DNA from: an uncultured archaeon
GTDB taxonomy: Archaea; Iainarchaeota; Iainarchaeia; Iainarchaeales; 0-14-0-20-30-16
NCBI GenBank assembly: GCA_964565125.1
Contig: CAZMCX010000041.1
Span: 1 to 6,893, forward strand
Length of the DNA: 6,893 bases
Direction: 5' to 3'
The notes beneath the pieces are model-generated. The model made no database searches, was not told the DNA's origin, and worked only from the letters and a program-made list of their open reading frames with translations. Positions within the stretch are counted from its first letter, which is position 1; each line of letters opens with the position of its first letter. Of this stretch, positions 1-6,867 are shown one piece after another. A program made the position numbers and the translations under genes.

Positions 1-162
1 ATCAAATGTTGCTTTTGGTGGTTCTTCCGTTGGAATAGATTCTTTAGGTTTTACAAGTGGTTCCTCTGTTTTTGGAACTAAAGGCTCTTCTGGGATAGGG
101 GGAGATGTAGTCTCAGGAGGGATTCCCGGTTCTGGGGTTGTTGTTTCAGGAGTTACAGTTGA
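1..162 (-). other. Pro/Thr/Glu-rich extended linker (aa 2236-2289 and beyond). The ORF continues past the window.
   Basis: The translation is STVTPETTTPEPGIPPETTSPPIPEEPLVPKTEEPLVKPKESIPTEEPPKATFD, with 15 Pro in 54 aa by hand count. It contains an imperfect EEPLVPK / EEPLVKPK repeat. Confidence 0.8.
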
Positions 163-3100
163 TTTTGCCTTTCTCAAAGATAACAATACAGCTGCTAATC
201 CTTGTTCTTCTTTCTGATCCCAAACTCCTTCTTTTCCTGCTTCTACAAATGATTGTTCTTCTTTCATTTGTGCAATGTCATCTTCTATACTAGAATAATC
301 TTCTAATCCCAAAATTGTTCCCAAAATTGGTACTGATGCTATACCATCATGAACTGAATCTGTCCAATTCTTTTCAGATATTCCTGCTTTTGCATTCACT
401 CTGTGGGCTTGATAGTATTCTGTACCAACATTAATACCCATAAATATTCCACAGTCTAATGCTGCGCCAGCCCACCCAATTGGACCTAAAAATTTCAAAA
501 TCCATTTTTCTGTAACCAGACATGCAGTCATTCCTGCTGCTGTTGCTGCACCAAGTTTTGTTGGGTCTGTTGCATTACTAGTTAAAGCTGCAACAACACT
601 TTTTTGCTGTAATGGACAATCAGGATAATATATATTTGCATATTTCTTTGTTCCTTTAAAGTCTACATCAAATATACTTTTTTCACCTAGTTGTGGGCCT
701 TCTTTTACAAAGTTTGTAAAAAGTTCACAAGTATTCCTGCTCTCCACACCTTTTTCATAAATCAAAGCATATTCTTTGAAGTCTTTTTCATTTTTTCCAA
801 TATCAACCATTAATGCATTTACAAATGTTTGTGCGGTTATTCCACAGTCTGCATCAAATGCAATTCTTATTGGTTCTGTTTTAATTCCTTCTCTTTCCGC
901 ATAATAGAATAACCCAGAGCTATCACTGTTTGCTCCAGAGTTAACTTTGAATGCATCAGTTATTTCAACATTTATTTTTGCTTTTCCAACGCTTTTATTT
1001 CCTTCTTTAGTAAGCTCTATTGTTTTATTTGTCTGTCCTTTAGAATCAAAGTACGCTTCTAAGCCAGTATCTGCAGGGTAAATCAAAAATAAATCAACTC
1101 TTCCAAGAGATTGTGACTCTACAGTAATATCACAATGCCAAGTTCCTTTTCCTAATGGCAATTTACTACAAATACCGATTTTTATATCTCCTGCAGTAAT
1201 GTCTTTTTCACCGGGTTGCTTAGTTTTCCCGCTTAAACCACCGGTTCCAGATTTTACTTTTGCAGAATTTGGGACACCTTCGCCTGTGTTAACAATACAA
1301 CCATCAAAGTTTCCGTTTAAGAAACCAGTTATTGCTTTTACAACATCTTTTTGTATGGCTTCGTTTCCAATATCTAAATTTTTATTTATTTTTACAGTAA
1401 TTATTACATCGGTTCCATTTTGTTTTATACTAAATTCAACTAAGTTTCCTTCTGCAACAGAATCTCTTTTCAAAAACAAGGTGTTAGGTTTTGATTTCAA
1501 AAATCTATCTTGGTTAAATATTTGTTTCGAAACATCTTGTGCAATTGATTCTAAATCCATAGAATCATAATCCACATAACCTACACGCAATCCCAAAGGA
1601 TTATCTTTTTTTGTTTGTGCATCTTTTGGCAAATAATTCAATGCATTTTGAACTTTTAATTCACATTGGGATGTTTTTTCTTTTTTCAAAACTTGAACAT
1701 ACATATTGTAGCTGTCTTTTTGTATGATATCATTATTAATTACTTGCACCGCACCCGTGATTCTCAAACTATATTTTCCACAACCATCAAGTTGTTTATC
1801 TAAATACAATCTTTTTGTCCAGGTAGATGTTACTTCGGTTAACTCTATTCCATCTGTTATTGCGGTTTCTATTAAGCCCGTGTTAATTTTTTTCAAATCA
1901 TTATCCATCTGGGCTTGTGTTAATTTGTCATTTGTAAAATATACATTCAACTCTAATGCCTCTAAACCAAAGTCTTCAAATGAACAAGATGCAGATCCAA
2001 CTTCGCAATTTGTATTTTCTAATTTATTATTTATTGTTGTCAATTTTTTCTTATATACTTCCAAATAATATTTTATTTTTGCAATCAAAAATTTGGACAT
2101 TGATTCACTATCGCAATAGCCCATTGTAGAACAATCTGCAGTTGTGATTCTTGGGTAAAACACAGATAATTCATTTCCAGTAACACAATCTTTTATTTGT
2201 TTCTGATCTGTAACTGTTGCTTCGCCAGTCCCAGTCAATGCCCCGCCACCAAATCTCAAATTAACTAATAATGGAATATTAAACGGACCTTGGCTTACAC
2301 CCAAAACACCTTTAACAAATAAGGTATTATCTCTTGAAATTTCCTTACTTGCAGTTATTGTTAAAATAAATTCTTTTTCTTGCCCCAATTCAATTGTTGT
2401 CCCATTTGGCGCAGATAAAACTGTTTTGTTTCCAAATAATTCTGCTTCACTTACCCCTGTTATTGATACTGCTTCCGCACAATTATTTACTAAAGTAAAG
2501 GACCTTGCAATTTCTTTTCCAAAAGTTTCGCTTATGTAAGTCAATTTATTTTCTGGTTTTGTTCCCTTTTTTACAGTAATACATTTATCTGGAGAAACAT
2601 GTATTACAAGATATCCGTTCGCAGATATTTGTTGATTAATTCCTTGTATTGTTCCTCTTGCTTGTATCCCATAATATTGTTCTGTTTGCTTTGAGGTAGA
2701 TGGCATGTTAATATATCCTTGAAGCATTGTTGCCTGTCCCGGTGCCAAAACTTGAATTGTTGATGGCATAAAATTAATTGCACTTCCGCCAGAAGCATAA
2801 CTTCCATAAGCTGGGCTATTATAAATGCTTGAATGCGGATCAACATAATTTCCAGGATTTGCATATTGATCTTGTGTTAATCCCGATTGATAAGTAAAGG
2901 CATCAACACCCTTATTATTTACACTAGAATTATATCCTGGTTGATTATATCTGGAATTATTTAGCTGGCTATAACTATTCAAAAAATTCTGGCCAGTATT
3001 TGTGGCATAATTGTATGGCTGCATCTGGTATCTATTACTGGAAGCCATTACCTGGATATTATGTATTGGCATTCTTCCATTGTTCTGTATTATTACTGGA

Positions 3101-6100
3101 ACATATTGGCCTTGCATCTCTTTAAACGCAGACACAAATATATGCCCCGCAGTAAGTATAGATAAAGAACTTGCTGCATTCCAAATTGTAATATTTAAAG
3201 GTATATTTTTTGTAAAATAATCTGTTGCCAAATACAATGATAATACTTTTGTTTCATCAGCCATTATTACTGGAGTCAAATTCACCAATGTAAACTTTAT
3301 TGATTTTTCTTCTCCTTTTTTCAAATCAAATCCTTGCATGTTCAACTGCAAGCCATAATTTGACGCATCATCTGAAACCATTTGCGGTGTAACTTTCAAA
3401 TCATATTCACAATTATTTCTAAATAAAATACTATCTTCTATTTTTGCATTTTGTACAGCCGGCAAACTATAAATTAATGCTTCTTTACTTGCCCACAAAC
3501 AACTTGTGTTCTTTATTTCTTTATTATAATAAACAAATACTTTTGTTTTTATTTTTGTAATTTCATTTTTATTCTGAACCCCAACTATTTCTAATTCTAC
3601 AACCCCGTTTTCTCTTTCTTCGTCGCCGTTATAAGAGCCAGTTACTACTAACTCTGCAACACCATTTGCAGCAATAAATCCAGTAACCATTTTTGCACTT
3701 ATTAAAAAGTTAGAACTCAAATTAGAACTTACTATATTCACAGACATTGATTCAACTGGAAGCTTTGTTTTATTCTGAACAGATATTTTTACAGTTCCGT
3801 GTTTTGCATTTTTTGGAATTATTAAATCATTATCGCTTTTAACATACAACGCACCAACATTTCCAAGCAAAATTTCTAATTCTGTTGGCAAGTACCCTGG
3901 AACGCTTACAGAAACTAAATAAAACCCGCTTGTAAAACTATTCTTTATCAAATATCTACCATCTTTTCCAAAGTCTACTTTTCCTGTGCCTTCAACAAAC
4001 ACAACACTCTTTTTTGTTTTTTTATCTGAAATTGTAATCTTCGCATTTGTTAAATAATTTCCGCCTTTTTCTTTAACTATTATTGGAAAATCTTCTCCAA
4101 GAGGAATAAAATCACCATTTAAAATTACTTCCATTTCTTTTTTAGGGAAAATAGTTACCGAAATATTTTTCTCAATTACGCCCTTTGAGGTAATTGTTTT
4201 TACCGCAATATTTGTAAGTCCTTCTTTAAACGGATTAAAATAAAATCTTACTTTCTTTTTTTCCATTGATGCCATATCTACAAAAACATTTTGCTTTGTG
4301 TTCTTTTCATCTTTGGGGGAAAACTCTGTTGGGCTTTCCGCATAATTATTTAGATAAAGTTTAGGGGTATCTTCTGTCTGAACTGACAAAGAAATTTGTT
4401 GTTCAATAATAGAAGTTAATTCTAAATCCAATGCATAATAATAATCCAACACACCATTAAACTTCCCAACATCATATGTAAACTGGTCATCTAAGATTGT
4501 GTATGAAATACAAACATCATTCTGACAATTCAATGATCCAGCCATTAACTGAACTTCTTTTAAGTAAGTATCAGCATACAAACCATATTTTATTGGGATG
4601 TTTTCATTTGCGCCCAGCATAGAATCTACTGGATTTCTTATGAAATTTGTATCTTCTTGTGTCCAAGCCCTATATCTTATTTCCATCGCATTCAAATCTG
4701 TTGTTGCTTTTGATTTTACTCTTACTTTTAAATTACTGTTTCCCGCGGGATTTGTGAAATATAATTCAAGCCATTTGTTGAATTGGCCCGCAACACCAGT
4801 AGAATAATAATCTACAGAATAATCCCCTGGCATAGGCAGAGGGGAATAGCTAATTCCATATTTGAAATTATCTGCAACACCATCAAACCCAATAATGCCC
4901 ACATCTTGATTTGCAACATATTTTTCATTATCTGAACCCAATCTTATATGTAAGCCGCCAGAATACAAACCCTCTGGCCAAAACAAATTAAATACTAACA
5001 AATAAGTTTTTCCTTTTTGCATTGCGCTAACTTCTTTTCCGTCTACATCGGTTATCTTTGATAAAGAAACAAATAATTTATCTTTATTTTTATTATCAGC
5101 CAATTTTATTTGCATTTTATCTTTTGGATTTATTGTCTGTGAGTACGTGTTTCCATTTTCATCAGTAACAAACATATCTAATTCTTTGTTTCCTAATGAA
5201 TCTGCCTCAATTTTTCCCATCAAATCTGTGTATCCATCATAAACTAAATTTCCTTGCTTATCAAAAAGCATAACATGTGCGTTTGTCAATGGTTTTCCGT
5301 ATTTGTCGTATAAATACATTGTAAATTTACTGCCTGCGTTTTCCATCTTTATCTCAATTCTATTTCTTCCAGCTTTCAACAATAAGGATGCCTCACCATA
5401 TTCCTCATCAGTATTTGCAGATACAGATAAAGTAATATTTGGTTTTAAATTTAAAGTAAAATATCCAGTTATAGAAGTTATTGGATTGGGGCCTGTTATT
5501 GGATAAAATTCCCCATTTGCGTCATATTTAAATTCCAAAGTTGCATTCCCAACTGGTTTATTATCTTTATCAACAACAAACACATCAACTATTGCTGCTT
5601 TTGTAAGATCTACTTTTTCCATTTCAAATTTCATTTCTGAAGAACTGTCCAATAATTTTGTTTGTGGATAATATCCGTCTTTATACACAGAAATATATTT
5701 TAAAATTGTATAGTCCAACCCTGAAAAACTAGTTGTTCCGCCAATATCTGTATTTTCTGTCAACTGTTCAATAAGCATTGTAGTGTATAATGAAACTTTT
5801 GCCTCTTGGATTCCAACACCCAAAGAGTCAAGCACACTTACATTTAATTTTCCGCCACCAACAGACATAATAAAAGAAATTACTTCTTCGTCTGTCAATA
5901 AAGTTCTTAAAATTCCTTCAACATTAGAGTCAAATACAGCAAAGCCATCTTTTTGCGCAACAAATCTTACTGATGTTCCTTTTTTTACAGAAAATATCGC
6001 AATTCCATCTTCATTTGTGTTTGTGCTTCCAATTTTTGTATTGGACTTTATATTATAAACATCAATTTTCACATTATTCAAAGCGTTCTGTATTACATCT

Positions 6101-6867
6101 TTTACAACAAATTTAAAAGATCCATCCTCGCTCGGATCAAACTCTTTAGGACTAAGTTCAAAGATATAATTCTTGTTTTCAATTAACTCAACTGACTTTG
6201 TATACTGTTCATATCCATCTTTATCAATAGCTAAATTAACTTTCTTCAAAGGCAGCACAGCATCAAAACCACCATACTCATCTGTAGTTCCTTCAACTAG
6301 CAATTCATCGTCATCATAAATAGACAACTTTGCACTTCCCACAGTGGTTTGCGCTTTACCATTAATTACTTTAAAAGTTATTTTTCCAGTTTGTTCTTGT
6401 TTTTCAAAAATCAATGATACTTGCATTTCCTTTCCAGAAATTGGCAACTCTGAGGGGGCTGTGAAAATATACCCTTCCAAAGTAGAATTAAAAAATAATG
6501 AATCCCCAACTCCAATTCCTTTAATCTCTATTTGTGTTCCATTCTGCACTTGCTCAGACAACAATATCGTGCCATCTAATTTAGAAATGTTTAAAAAAAC
6601 TGAACTTGGAGTTATTCCATCATCGGTCATTATAGATAAATTCAAGGTTACGCTTGAGGCAAATACAATAGTTACTAGTAAAACAATTACAGCTATAATT
6701 AGGGCAATAATCAAAATTGTAAACCACATTGCAGGGATTCCTTTTTCTTCCAAAAAGTCAGAGTATTTTTGTGCAGGAATGCCTTTCTCATCCAAAAAAG
6801 CTACTAGGCTATCAAAACCAGCAGTCATTTTTTCGTTTATTTTCCCAAAAAATTCGCCTAAACCCAT
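1..6867 (-). CDS. Giant membrane-anchored surface/adhesin-like protein. The 5' end is complete and the 3' end is truncated by the window edge, giving at least 2,289 aa in the window.
   Basis: Splitting the plus strand into triplets from position 1, I found no tta, cta or tca triplet (minus-strand TAA/TAG/TGA) between 1 and 6885. The first in-frame stop upstream is tta at 6886-6888. The ATG is 'cat' at 6865-6867, preceded by AGGTG. The translation has coherent protein features: a TM helix, repeated beta-sandwich motifs and linkers. Positions 1-3 form a complete codon (GAT) and the frame stays open at the edge. Confidence 0.93.
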   Translation of the reverse strand, partial: MGLGEFFGKINEKMTAGFDSLVAFLDEKGIPAQKYSDFLEEKGIPAMWFTILIIALIIAVIVLLVTIVFASSVTLNLSIMTDDGITPSSVFLNISKLDGTILLSEQVQNGTQIEIKGIGVGDSLFFNSTLEGYIFTAPSELPISGKEMQVSLIFEKQEQTGKITFKVINGKAQTTVGSAKLSIYDDDELLVEGTTDEYGGFDAVLPLKKVNLAIDKDGYEQYTKSVELIENKNYIFELSPKEFDPSEDGSFKFVVKDVIQNALNNVKIDVYNIKSNTKIGSTNTNEDGIAIFSVKKGTSVRFVAQKDGFAVFDSNVEGILRTLLTDEEVISFIMSVGGGKLNVSVLDSLGVGIQEAKVSLYTTMLIEQLTENTDIGGTTSFSGLDYTILKYISVYKDGYYPQTKLLDSSSEMKFEMEKVDLTKAAIVDVFVVDKDNKPVGNATLEFKYDANGEFYPITGPNPITSITGYFTLNLKPNITLSVSANTDEEYGEASLLLKAGRNRIEIKMENAGSKFTMYLYDKYGKPLTNAHVMLFDKQGNLVYDGYTDLMGKIEADSLGNKELDMFVTDENGNTYSQTINPKDKMQIKLADNKNKDKLFVSLSKITDVDGKEVSAMQKGKTYLLVFNLFWPEGLYSGGLHIRLGSDNEKYVANQDVGIIGFDGVADNFKYGISYSPLPMPGDYSVDYYSTGVAGQFNKWLELYFTNPAGNSNLKVRVKSKATTDLNAMEIRYRAWTQEDTNFIRNPVDSMLGANENIPIKYGLYADTYLKEVQLMAGSLNCQNDVCISYTILDDQFTYDVGKFNGVLDYYYALDLELTSIIEQQISLSVQTEDTPKLYLNNYAESPTEFSPKDEKNTKQNVFVDMASMEKKKVRFYFNPFKEGLTNIAVKTITSKGVIEKNISVTIFPKKEMEVILNGDFIPLGEDFPIIVKEKGGNYLTNAKITISDKKTKKSVVFVEGTGKVDFGKDGRYLIKNSFTSGFYLVSVSVPGYLPTELEILLGNVGALYVKSDNDLIIPKNAKHGTVKISVQNKTKLPVESMSVNIVSSNLSSNFLISAKMVTGFIAANGVAELVVTGSYNGDEERENGVVELEIVGVQNKNEITKIKTKVFVYYNKEIKNTSCLWASKEALIYSLPAVQNAKIEDSILFRNNCEYDLKVTPQMVSDDASNYGLQLNMQGFDLKKGEEKSIKFTLVNLTPVIMADETKVLSLYLATDYFTKNIPLNITIWNAASSLSILTAGHIFVSAFKEMQGQYVPVIIQNNGRMPIHNIQVMASSNRYQMQPYNYATNTGQNFLNSYSQLNNSRYNQPGYNSSVNNKGVDAFTYQSGLTQDQYANPGNYVDPHSSIYNSPAYGSYASGGSAINFMPSTIQVLAPGQATMLQGYINMPSTSKQTEQYYGIQARGTIQGINQQISANGYLVIHVSPDKCITVKKGTKPENKLTYISETFGKEIARSFTLVNNCAEAVSITGVSEAELFGNKTVLSAPNGTTIELGQEKEFILTITASKEISRDNTLFVKGVLGVSQGPFNIPLLVNLRFGGGALTGTGEATVTDQKQIKDCVTGNELSVFYPRITTADCSTMGYCDSESMSKFLIAKIKYYLEVYKKKLTTINNKLENTNCEVGSASCSFEDFGLEALELNVYFTNDKLTQAQMDNDLKKINTGLIETAITDGIELTEVTSTWTKRLYLDKQLDGCGKYSLRITGAVQVINNDIIQKDSYNMYVQVLKKEKTSQCELKVQNALNYLPKDAQTKKDNPLGLRVGYVDYDSMDLESIAQDVSKQIFNQDRFLKSKPNTLFLKRDSVAEGNLVEFSIKQNGTDVIITVKINKNLDIGNEAIQKDVVKAITGFLNGNFDGCIVNTGEGVPNSAKVKSGTGGLSGKTKQPGEKDITAGDIKIGICSKLPLGKGTWHCDITVESQSLGRVDLFLIYPADTGLEAYFDSKGQTNKTIELTKEGNKSVGKAKINVEITDAFKVNSGANSDSSGLFYYAEREGIKTEPIRIAFDADCGITAQTFVNALMVDIGKNEKDFKEYALIYEKGVESRNTCELFTNFVKEGPQLGEKSIFDVDFKGTKKYANIYYPDCPLQQKSVVAALTSNATDPTKLGAATAAGMTACLVTEKWILKFLGPIGWAGAALDCGIFMGINVGTEYYQAHRVNAKAGISEKNWTDSVHDGIASVPILGTILGLEDYSSIEDDIAQMKEEQSFVEAGKEGVWDQKEEQGLAAVLLSLRKAKSTVTPETTTPEPGIPPETTSPPIPEEPLVPKTEEPLVKPKESIPTEEPPKATFD
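424..555 (-). other. Gly/Ala-rich hydrophobic segment with a GxxxGxxxG glycine-zipper (aa 2105-2148). It may be membrane-interacting.
   Basis: The translation is LGAATAAGMTACLVTEKWILKFLGPIGWAGAALDCGIFMGINVG. Two small-residue-rich hydrophobic stretches are separated by TEKWILK. GIFMGINVG is a GxxxGxxxG motif. Confidence 0.4.
451..2187 (-). other. Cysteine-rich distal ectodomain region of unknown fold (aa 1561-2139)
   Basis: In-frame aca/gca triplets (minus-strand TGT/TGC) number 15 in this region, 6 in aa 781-1560 and none in aa 1-780. The sequence includes DCVTGNELSVFYPRITTADCSTMGYCDSE, NTNCEVGSASCSFEDFG, LDGCGKYSLRITG, IGICSKLPLGKGTWHCDITV, FDADCGITAQTF and YYPDCPLQQK. I see no catalytic motif (no HExxH and no true P-loop). 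Confidence 0.5.
2251..3816 (-). other. About four Ig-like modules of the CARDB/NEW3/DUF11 style (aa ~1018-1539)
   Basis: Recurrent strand patterns are typical of these prokaryotic surface Ig-like domains: GTVKISVQNKTKLPVESMSVNIV...GVAELVVTG, IEDSILFRNNCEYDLKVTP...GEEKSIKFTLVN, QYVPVIIQNNGRMPIHNIQVMAS...IQVLAPGQATMLQGYINMP and IARSFTLVNNCAEAVSITGV...TIELGQEKEFILTITA. Approximate module bounds are 3526-3816, 3178-3501, 2587-3177 and 2251-2586. Confidence 0.4.
2629..3048 (-). repeat. N/Q/Y/S-rich low-complexity (prion-like composition) segment, aa 1274-1413, with its core at aa 1274-1363 (nt 2779-3048)
   Basis: The translation is MASSNRYQMQPYNYATNTGQNFLNSYSQLNNSRYNQPGYNSSVNNKGVDAFTYQSGLTQDQYANPGNYVDPHSSIYNSPAYGSYASGGSAINFMPSTIQVLAPGQATMLQGYINMPSTSKQTEQYYGIQARGTIQGINQQ. 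By hand count, 49 of the first 90 residues are N, Q, Y or S, with no Glu and only 3 basic residues. The rest of the protein is K/E/D-rich. Confidence 0.8.
3865..4134 (-). other. Seventh, isolated CarboxypepD_reg/PEGA-like beta-sandwich domain (aa 912-1001)
   Basis: The translation is MEVILNGDFIPLGEDFPIIVKEKGGNYLTNAKITISDKKTKKSVVFVEGTGKVDFGKDGRYLIKNSFTSGFYLVSVSVPGYLPTELEILL. The G-x-Y-x-[LV]-x-V-x-x-x-G-Y tail is the classic signature of this fold family. Confidence 0.6.
4135..5100 (-). other. Unassigned aromatic-rich, probably beta-rich globular region (aa 590-911). It contains a C-x4-C pair.
   Basis: The translation includes ...KGKTYLLVFNLFWPEGLYSGGLHIRLGSDNEKYVANQDVGIIGFDGVADNFKYGISYSPLPMPGDYSVDYYSTGVAGQFNKWLELYFTNPAGNSNLKVRVKS...LNCQNDVCISYTILDD.... 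I recognise no motif. The first cysteines of the protein occur here, at 4510-4527. Confidence 0.3.
5101..6657 (-). repeat. Six divergent tandem beta-sandwich repeats of about 80-90 aa, transthyretin-like (CarboxypepD_reg/PEGA-type), aa 71-589
   Basis: Approximate repeat starts are 6657, 6390, 6126, 5859, 5601 and 5334. A recurring pattern is G-x-[ILF]-x-[FV]-x-V-x-D...A-x-[VIL]-x-[LVI]-[YF]...T-[DN]-x-x-G-x-[FA]...K-D-G-[YF]. Examples are TDEYGGFDAV...DKDGYEQYTKSVEL, TNEDGIAIFSV...QKDGFAVFDS, YKDGYYPQTKLL and YDKYGKPLTNAHVMLFD...TDLMGKIE. Similarity exists at the protein-motif level only, with no obvious nucleotide repeat. Confidence 0.65.
6658..6729 (-). other. Single transmembrane helix (probable signal-anchor), aa 47-70
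   Basis: The translation MWFTILIIALIIAVIVLLVTIVFA is 24 consecutive uncharged, mostly aliphatic residues. It is preceded by a 46-aa charged tail, which is too long for a classical signal-peptide n-region. Confidence 0.8.
6730..6798 (-). repeat. Duplicated 9-aa motif FLDEKGIPA / FLEEKGIPA with a 14-aa (42-nt) period, in the N-terminal tail just before the TM helix
   Basis: Translation of aa 24-46 is FLDEKGIPAQKYSDFLEEKGIPA. Copy 1 is at 6798-6772 and copy 2 at 6756-6730. The second copy abuts the hydrophobic segment. Confidence 0.7.

Follow-up and report, generated by a model that had tools for sequence, protein, structure and literature searches.

A cysteine-framed module as candidate hub of a giant surface protein family in Iainarchaeota

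The window analysed here is the whole of a 6,893-nucleotide stretch of DNA (contig CAZMCX010000041.1 of assembly GCA_964565125.1, from an uncultured archaeon of the Iainarchaeales), and a single minus-strand open reading frame (ORF) fills all 6893 of its bases. The 2289 amino acids (aa) that are visible belong to what homologous sequences suggest is a giant surface protein specific to Iainarchaeota (Diapherotrites, among the DPANN archaea), and the later part of the visible sequence contains a Cys-rich region with 15 Cys between aa 1561 and 2139. We think it reasonably likely that this region acts as a hub and contact domain of the giant protein, stapled by disulfides and equipped with peptidoglycan hydrolases that are interchangeable and a bundle of hydrophobic helices. 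Comparison with homologues indicates that the Cys set is almost certainly the disulfide framework of a conserved extracellular module, and the region itself is probably not the enzyme. Residue N of the protein lies at window positions 6868-3N to 6870-3N, in exact agreement with the numbering used in a preliminary description of the window, and the parts of the region are as follows.

451..2187, minus strand: Cys-rich interval, aa 1561–2139, with 15 Cys by sequence count
1243..2220, minus strand: domain A, aa 1550–1875, alpha/beta, ~325 aa, modelled by AlphaFold2 (AF2) as mixed helix and strand with a predicted local distance difference test score (pLDDT) of about 80–90
1192..1242, minus strand: Gly/Lys/Ser-rich insert, aa 1876–1892, at columns 370–395 of alignment A2, pLDDT below 50
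841..1191, minus strand: domain B, aa 1893–2009, predicted beta-sandwich with Cys1900/1912 and Cys2008, all-beta in the AF2 model (model residues 354–470)
358..840, minus strand: domain C, aa 2010–2170, modelled by AF2 as helices with low confidence (pLDDT 35–55)
412..582, minus strand: Gly/Ala/Ser-rich hydrophobic helical hairpin, aa 2096–2152, conserved in 69 sequences

Conservation and pairing of the cysteines

The 21 Cys of the window protein are unevenly spread, with none in aa 1–780, six in aa 781–1560 (at 781, 786, 1123, 1153, 1429 and 1463) and fifteen in aa 1561–2139 (at 1561, 1579, 1585, 1621, 1628, 1696, 1735, 1857, 1900, 1912, 2008, 2047, 2084, 2116 and 2139), against expected numbers of 7.2, 7.2 and 5.3. 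The probability of finding no Cys in the first 780 aa is 1.6e-4, and that of at least 15 of the 21 falling within 579 aa is 1.2e-5. The counts given in the preliminary description are thus reproduced and do not reflect chance, and the closely spaced pairs that it quoted are present as written (TADCSTMGYC, TNCEVGSASC and GICSKLPLGKGTWHC).

The family was recovered only by an exhaustive phmmer search, in which aa 1523–2239 were compared with 1.84 billion representatives and 82 homologous clusters were found, 72 of them with E-values below 1e-10 (best E=2e-71). A word-indexed protein search with either the region alone or a 10-sequence alignment as query returned no homologues, and scanning metagenomes with the region likewise yielded no relative. 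The homologues are typically 2600–2900 aa long, and in nearly all near-full-length proteins the homologous stretch begins at about residue 1450–1660. Every named homologue is from Candidatus Diapherotrites or Iainarchaeum, and one is annotated as 'transglycosylase SLT domain-containing protein [Ca. Diapherotrites archaeon]'. The window protein shares with the family an N-terminal tandem KGIP motif followed by a transmembrane helix, and its Cys module is at aa ~1500–2150. An orthologue found by genome scan in a Ca. Iainarchaeum metagenome-assembled genome (locus L001) shares 88% identity with the window protein across 978 aligned residues; the least conserved 100-aa bin (77%, compared with 86–92% elsewhere) is the one that holds a low-complexity insert.

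When the window protein is aligned with 53 full-length homologues (20–33% identity), 18 of its 21 Cys lie in columns with Cys in at least 49 of the 53, and the doubt that they might not be conserved among homologues is not borne out. In a regional alignment of 83 sequences the Cys columns are conserved at between 68/75 and 82/82, the majority having no more than four sequences without Cys, with the qualification that this is an FFT-NS-i alignment in which some columns of the variable C-terminal parts are unreliable. Cys make up roughly a fifth of the invariant columns, yet less than 1% of residues.

The Cys also behave as pairs. Outside the cytoplasmic N-terminus the ectodomain total is even in 48 of the 53 proteins (binomial p=7e-10), with totals ranging from 18 to 46. 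There are several instances of paired loss: P0031 lacks both 1123 and 1153, P0058 and P0047 lack 1621 and 1628, P0003 lacks 2116 and 2139, and P0012 lacks 1912 together with a Cys that is present elsewhere in the family (designated '1970'). Lineage-specific additional Cys likewise come as neighbouring pairs (e.g. 191/201, 179/213 and 1465/1474), and in the subgroup to which the window protein belongs the '1970' Cys is replaced by 1900 while 2047 and 2084 have been gained. Conservation, even parity, paired loss and paired gain all favour disulfides, and it is from these patterns that we infer the disulfides themselves; the suggestion in the preliminary description of an extracellular module held together by disulfides is supported by them.

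Architecture of the region and the C-terminal tail

The AF2 model was built with a 10-sequence alignment and has a mean pLDDT of 71, rising to 80–90 over aa 1550–2009; single-sequence AlphaFold gave a pLDDT of 36. Domain A is the best-conserved part of the family, with phmmer matches centred on query residues 10–340, and contains eight invariant Cys (1561, 1579, 1585, 1621, 1628, 1696, 1735 and 1857) as well as the invariant motifs YCD, GCG-Y and LP-D. The Gly/Lys/Ser-rich insert that follows it is longer in the window protein than in the nine other sequences of alignment A2. In domain B, Cys1912 is kept in 74/78 and Cys2008 in 68/75 sequences of the regional alignment, and domain C holds the hydrophobic hairpin together with Cys2047 and Cys2084, the latter two being confined to the window's subgroup.

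Searches for known relatives of the region were uniformly negative. Pfam finds nothing in it in either the window protein or ten family members, NCBIfam and PHROGs give no match, and PDB profile searches with alignment A2 and the full-length alignment A3 return only immunoglobulin-like (Ig-like) matches that lie outside it; PDB sequence searches are also empty for the region. Foldseek with the AF2 model gives no PDB match at E≤1e-3, and two BFVD matches below 1e-3, together with all of the weaker PDB and BFVD ones, are partial Ig-like matches with TM-scores of about 0.1, which we attribute to the domain B beta-sandwich. Domain A appears from the model to be without a detectable structural relative in PDB or BFVD. 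The region had been described as having no recognisable domain, and sequence, profile and structure searches agree in yielding no confident match to a known one. Comparison by hhalign of the region profile with the neighbouring paralogous giant protein at locus L002 gives a probability of only 0.4%, and the module is therefore not common to this paralogue.

The hairpin (TSNATDPTKLGAATAAGMTACLVTEKWILKFLGPIGWAGAALDCGIFMGINVGTEYY) consists of two helices split by a G-P-x-G-W turn, each containing one invariant Cys (Cys2116 and Cys2139), and a Lys or Arg is usually present ahead of it. Parity suggests that the region is connected to parts of the protein downstream of the hairpin. The number of Cys from the membrane anchor to Cys2139 is odd in 33 of the 53 proteins and the number after Cys2139 is odd in 34, and with both partial counts odd and the total even the simplest explanation is a single disulfide that spans the two parts. 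The odd count of 15 Cys in the window's region fits such a spanning disulfide, for which the presumed partner is composite aa 2824 of the orthologue, past the window edge. On the downstream side, a Cys ~30–50 residues past a conserved 'TYK'-type strand is present in all 50 sequences aligned there, and in the minimal family members P0058, P0061 and P0066 a single Cys follows the hairpin, 13–20 aa from the end of the protein. On the upstream side, elimination among the aligned sequences makes Cys2008 most likely the unpaired partner. Cys2008 is missing from four full-length proteins, and in two of them (P0019 and P0027) the C-terminal Cys is missing as well (Fisher p=0.013, counted over sequences). 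In P0019, P0027 and many other members, helix 1 has an additional Cys seven residues past the first Cys of the hairpin ('+7'), and this co-occurs with a Cys in a third hydrophobic helix 350–1100 residues downstream (p=2e-7; both are present in 16 sequences, the hairpin Cys only in five, the third-helix Cys only in two, and neither in 29). These patterns suggest that the variable helical region forms a loop, after which the chain would return so that the third hydrophobic helix packs on the hairpin and a small beta element is tied near Cys2008. They further suggest that the Cys-rich region is a hub from which both this helical loop and an optional enzyme domain emerge.

What lies beyond the window is seen in the orthologue (98–5923 of L001), which runs for 994 aa past the linker at which the window ends, counted from a shared 'PPKATFD'. 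The tail begins with an Ala/Lys/Glu-rich region, which from its sequence looks helical and coiled-coil-like, and proceeds through a Gly/Ala-rich hydrophobic segment and an SLT domain to a GDSL/SGNH domain; the third hydrophobic helix, the small beta element and the conserved C-terminal Cys are at composite aa ~2750–2824. The SLT lytic transglycosylase domain (PF01464) reaches 26.3 bits (Pfam gathering cut-off 21.3) and the Lipase_GDSL_2 domain 50.1 bits, the latter also matching solved SGNH hydrolases in the PDB. PHROGs yields one weak match to this protein, to a group with no assigned function (E=6.6e-4), over the SGNH part. Pfam detects no SLT domain within the window's 2289 aa, where the ORF is cut at the window edge. 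MurNAc (N-acetylmuramic acid) O-acetylation blocks lytic transglycosylases, and from peptidoglycan biochemistry an SGNH O-acetyl-esterase beside a lytic transglycosylase would make a coherent pair. The preliminary description had placed the Cys-rich region at the far end of the stalk as a candidate head or effector module. The position does not hold, as the orthologue continues to its two enzyme domains, and the effector part is not supported either, with enzymes located elsewhere and the region devoid of an invariant His or catalytic signature. A head or hub is nevertheless partly right for the family core, because three members end just after the last conserved, apparently tied-back Cys.

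The C-terminal enzymes of other members include SLT, Amidase_2, Amidase_3, Glucosaminidase, NlpC/P60, DUF2272 and GDSL domains, with SLT in five of 33 other members scanned. Pfam detects no C-terminal enzyme in a second set of 17 members, and P0058, P0061 and P0066 end before any such domain. We note that some C-termini instead have a domain of unrecognised type that contains Cys and a 'PEALLV' motif, and that polymorphic C-terminal domains following a conserved core resemble the swappable tips of polymorphic toxins. In P0009, P0013 and P0020 an acidic 'C-DG-DNDGD-x-(I/V)DEDCG' motif precedes the C-terminal beta element and resembles calcium-binding thrombospondin type 3-like repeats.

A possible contact hub and its alternatives

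In the arrangement that we favour, the hub would rest on a stalk of ~1500 aa, built of Ig-like and prealbumin-like domains and membrane-anchored at its N-terminus, and would be composed of the ~325-aa alpha/beta domain with four disulfides, the Ig-like beta-sandwich, and the hairpin clamped by Cys2116–Cys2139. The chain would leave it as a variable, coiled-coil-like helical excursion and return as the third hydrophobic helix and small beta element, with the returning part pinned by long-range disulfides, probably from Cys2008 to the C-terminal Cys and, in many members, from helix 1 of the hairpin to the third hydrophobic helix. Some members would also have a swappable peptidoglycan hydrolase hanging off the hub (here, as predicted from the orthologue, SLT with an SGNH esterase). 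On this reading the hub most likely serves as a rigid, disulfide-stapled junction for contact, which turns the hydrolases, and perhaps its hydrophobic helices too, towards the envelope of a bacterial cell that is partner or prey. The sequences show the gene structure, the family, the conservation, parity and joint loss of Cys, the lack of known homologues and the C-terminal enzyme domains of the orthologue; the folding back of the chain, contact with a host and membrane activity of any kind are our interpretation.

Several points weigh against this interpretation. The C-terminal part is absent from the window and is deduced from an 88%-identical orthologue in another assembly, and a peptidoglycan hydrolase recognisable by Pfam is found in only 11–12 of the 33 members scanned, so that presenting a hydrolase cannot be the sole role of the module. 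The tests of Cys association ignore shared ancestry and count sequences rather than events, and the third-helix detector made some wrong calls, of which at least two (P0042 and P0069) worked against the association; among the five 'hairpin only' sequences, two or more are detector errors. The AF2 model rests on only ten sequences and has a pLDDT of 35–55 in the hairpin region. Finally, many Iainarchaeota are from anoxic habitats.

The nature of the hairpin bears on the topology of the whole protein. If the hairpin (aa ~2100–2150), and perhaps the third helix too, were true transmembrane segments, then aa 80–2100 would form a giant extracellular loop with both ends anchored in the membrane of the archaeon itself, and the Cys domain would be near the cell surface and not distal. 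The hairpin is indeed conserved, 45–55 aa long, rich in Gly, Ala, Ser, Val and Leu and often preceded by Lys or Arg, and its maximum 19-aa hydropathy is above 1.6 in 40% of members and as high as 2.1. However, the family median is 1.56, and the two maxima in the window protein are 1.35 and 1.14, compared with 3.64 for the N-terminal helix; the invariant Cys are lost together and helix 1 is apparently disulfide-linked to the third helix, which would be unusual in a bilayer. Three spans would also put the peptidoglycan hydrolases in the cytoplasm and leave the even Cys parity that extends over the hairpin without an easy explanation. Because of the borderline hydropathy, the co-lost Cys pair and the misplaced hydrolases, a buried or latent membrane-active helical bundle seems to us likelier than a conventional transmembrane hairpin, and we regard the doubly anchored topology as unlikely. 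A latent membrane-active device of a specific kind, similar to a class II fusion protein or a pore-forming protein that releases its helices into a host membrane, draws on the conserved and apparently disulfide-locked hairpin and third helix, on cell-wall hydrolases in the same chain and on faint Foldseek matches to alphavirus E1 and bunyavirus glycoproteins. Those matches have probabilities of 0.1–0.4, E-values of 0.025 or worse and TM-scores of about 0.1, and do not count as evidence for homology; neither experiment nor context points to membrane insertion, and the hairpin is modelled with low confidence. Such a device seems to us very unlikely, and with Foldseek probabilities this low and no PDB match a class II viral or fusexin-type fusion protein was rejected as an identification of the region.

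An enzymatic or toxic effector of novel fold within the region itself, for example a cysteine-dependent hydrolase, would be in keeping with the invariant polar non-Cys residues of domain A (Y1584, D1586, D1647, Y1699, D1749 and R1788 in window numbering), with the lack of a match to any known fold and with the odd Cys count, by which one Cys could be free. We consider this a slim prospect: the family alignments contain no invariant His, Ser or Glu partner or other catalytic signature in the region, no enzyme family matches it, the odd Cys is balanced by the conserved C-terminal Cys so that totals are even, and recognisable enzymes are found at the true C-terminus instead. A catalytic Cys/His arrangement specifically was rejected, there being no invariant His in the domain A alignments. 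Binding of Zn or an Fe-S cluster by the conserved Cys has to be weighed too, since invariance alone cannot tell metal ligands from disulfides and some members have CxxxCxxC in hairpin helix 1. The spacing of the core Cys (17, 5, 35, 6, 67, 38 and 121 residues), however, contains neither CxxC nor CxxH knuckles, His is not conserved anywhere in domain A, and a Zn or Fe-S site was rejected on this basis; even totals and pairwise loss and gain are predicted by disulfides rather than by sites with three or four ligands, and the location is extracellular. We judge metal binding the least probable of the alternatives.

A more elaborate form of the hub model can be envisaged, in which disulfides hold a three-helix bundle and a wall hydrolase on a recognition domain of novel fold as a redox-latched device for breaching envelopes. 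When a bacterial host is contacted the hydrolases would open the peptidoglycan, and reduction or rearrangement of the staples would free the helices into the host membrane. This is speculative and we think it improbable; if true, it would give an Iainarchaeote physical access to a bacterium, and a type IV pilus-like locus next to the gene in most relatives (see below) could deploy the giant protein. Unless the membrane-active reading is true, the module would be one more uncharacterised domain of a lineage-specific surface protein rather than a system of a new kind.

The means by which DPANN archaea attach to their partners and exploit them are largely unknown, and we know of no host for Iainarchaeota or Diapherotrites. 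What is conserved in these Iainarchaeota proteins is the ~600-aa Cys-framed module of unknown fold with its hydrophobic bundle; the enzyme is exchanged or missing and is not the conserved part. The module is therefore a testable target for studies of contact between archaeon and bacterium, with predicted disulfides and a candidate membrane-active element, and a family-specific marker.

Related systems, anchor, stalk and neighbouring genes

Comparisons can be drawn with several groups of large proteins. Giant bacterial adhesins of the RTX/BapA/SiiE type have an Ig-like stalk, distal ligand-binding modules and a type I secretion retention module. The Iainarchaeota protein has in common with them an Ig-like/prealbumin-like stalk and non-repeat modules far from the anchor, but is unlike them in its N-terminal transmembrane anchor, its disulfide-rich domain of unknown fold and its peptidoglycan hydrolases; there are no RTX or calcium-binding repeats in the window. 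Phage tape-measure or ejection proteins and conjugative VirB1-like proteins have hydrophobic segments and coiled coils together with an SLT domain, and the order in the orthologue (hydrophobic helices, helical region, hydrophobic helix, SLT) resembles such envelope-crossing devices. Unlike them, however, the window part gives no PHROGs hit, and in L001 and L003 the gene is among chromosomal housekeeping genes. Thioester domains, as in alpha-2-macroglobulin (CGEQ) and Gram-positive adhesins, come to mind from the bMG3, MG2 and SpaA-like matches in the stalk and from the GCG-Y motif, which superficially recalls GCGEQ. A thioester domain was rejected for the region: the motif (DGCGKYS in the window) has no Gln at +3, there is no invariant Gln, and Pfam gives no thioester-domain or A2M hit there.

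Closest in description are the 'large murein transglycosylase' proteins of DPANN archaea, which are up to ~3000 aa long, predicted to be extracellular and contain a bacterial-type SLT domain (PMC8204110; PMC9723730, PMC10936187). Likened to these by description, the family is similar in size, in its origin from small-genome DPANN lineages and in having SLT (here in the orthologue). DPANN SLT proteins have been proposed to bind or degrade bacterial walls, with only SLT discussed and mainly for Woesearchaeota and Pacearchaeota (PMC8204110, PMC9723730, PMC10936187); here all named members are from Diapherotrites/Iainarchaeum and the C-terminal enzyme is interchangeable or absent. An SLT-type domain has likewise led to proposals of attachment to, and degradation of, the partner wall for the 'Archaeovorins' of predatory Omnitrophota (West-Roberts et al. 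2023, bioRxiv 10.1101/2023.11.21.568195), which are also very large, have many domains and come from cells that are ultra-small or predatory. They differ in being bacterial, longer than 10,000 aa and rich in glycosyltransferase, methylase and peptidase domains, and there is no sequence relation, phmmer having found an archaeal family only. The window protein appears to fall among giant surface proteins of ultra-small symbionts that are aimed at a partner's cell wall.

The remaining features of the window are listed here.

1..6867, minus strand: partial ORF of the giant, N-terminally anchored Iainarchaeota/Diapherotrites surface protein (2289 aa, open frame, homologues)
6733..6867, minus strand: cytoplasmic tandem 'KGIP' motif, aa 1–45, conserved in the family
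6634..6732, minus strand: sole strong transmembrane helix, aa 46–78, Kyte-Doolittle 19-aa maximum 3.64
2479..4527, minus strand: three local Cys pairs in the stalk (781/786, 1123/1153 and 1429/1463), each conserved in 52–53 of 53
1..150, minus strand: Pro/Glu/Thr-rich linker seen in the sequence, aa 2240–2289, within which the window edge falls

The ORF starts with an ATG at 6865–6867 (minus strand), with an in-frame stop seven codons upstream; a GGTG motif also precedes the ATG, and only 26 bases of upstream sequence are inside the window. The frame is open to window position 1, so the C-terminus is lost at the left edge. The low G+C content of the window (~32%) fits an Iainarchaeum origin. 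There are two plus-strand ORFs at 1199–1570 and 1724–2068 (123 and 114 aa), antisense within the Cys-rich interval. Because they are antisense to a conserved coding frame we treat them as spurious, most likely products of AT-rich sequence.

The N-terminal motif has the pattern FL-D/E-x-KGIP ... FLE-x-KGIP immediately ahead of the transmembrane helix, and is common both to the family and to the paralogous giant protein at L002 that is without the Cys-rich module. As type IV pilus-like genes lie next to the gene in relatives, the motif may be a signal for targeting or processing; 'KG|IP' recalls class III signal cleavage sites but does not fit them. No other segment of the window protein exceeds a Kyte-Doolittle 19-aa value of 1.35. 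Pfam matches to CarboxypepD_reg, bMG3 and Big_1 occupy aa 170–1000, with MG2, SpaA and SdrD_B matches elsewhere in the family, and since a lone strong transmembrane helix at aa 46–78 is followed by adhesin-type Ig-like domains, the protein is expected to be N-terminally anchored with the remainder extracellular.

The four distant-member loci L002 (1–28121), L005, L006 and L008 have a divergent block upstream of the giant gene which encodes a T2SSE-family ATPase, a ~776-aa T2SSF-like membrane protein and five or so small ORFs; three of the small ORFs of L002 were translated and begin with archaeal class III (prepilin-type) signal sequences. Directly upstream in L005, L006 and L008 is a ~190-aa exosortase/EpsH-like ORF with a Pfam hit, the counterpart of which in L002 is a polytopic membrane protein without one. 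Downstream of the giant gene there is an ORF of 400–580 aa (with a class III-like signal seen in L002) followed by a second giant Ig-rich protein, which in L002 matches over only the first ~1000 residues and is without the Cys-rich module. The closest relatives of the window, L001 and L003, are without this pilus-like arrangement and have housekeeping neighbours, with P0001 in L003 surrounded by genes for tRNA synthetase and Cpn60 and, as read from ORF translations, what appear to be RNA polymerase subunit B genes downstream in L001. In L008 a Cas12f1-like_TNB (TnpB-type) ORF at 3147–4340 is situated between the T2SSF-like and pilin-like genes, which suggests a transposon insertion.

Two further segments of the stalk are of note. 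One is a second strongly conserved, unannotated domain at aa ~600–780 (window 4528–5070) with invariant His, Arg, Gly, Asp and Asn residues, for which no Pfam or PDB match was seen; its motifs are GGLHIRLGSD ... YGISYSP-P-PGD ... FNKWLELYF, and it ends at the invariant CxxxxC formed by Cys781 and Cys786. The other is a low-complexity insert at aa 1285–1378 (window 2734–3015) that is rich in Asn, Gln, Ser, Tyr and Gly.

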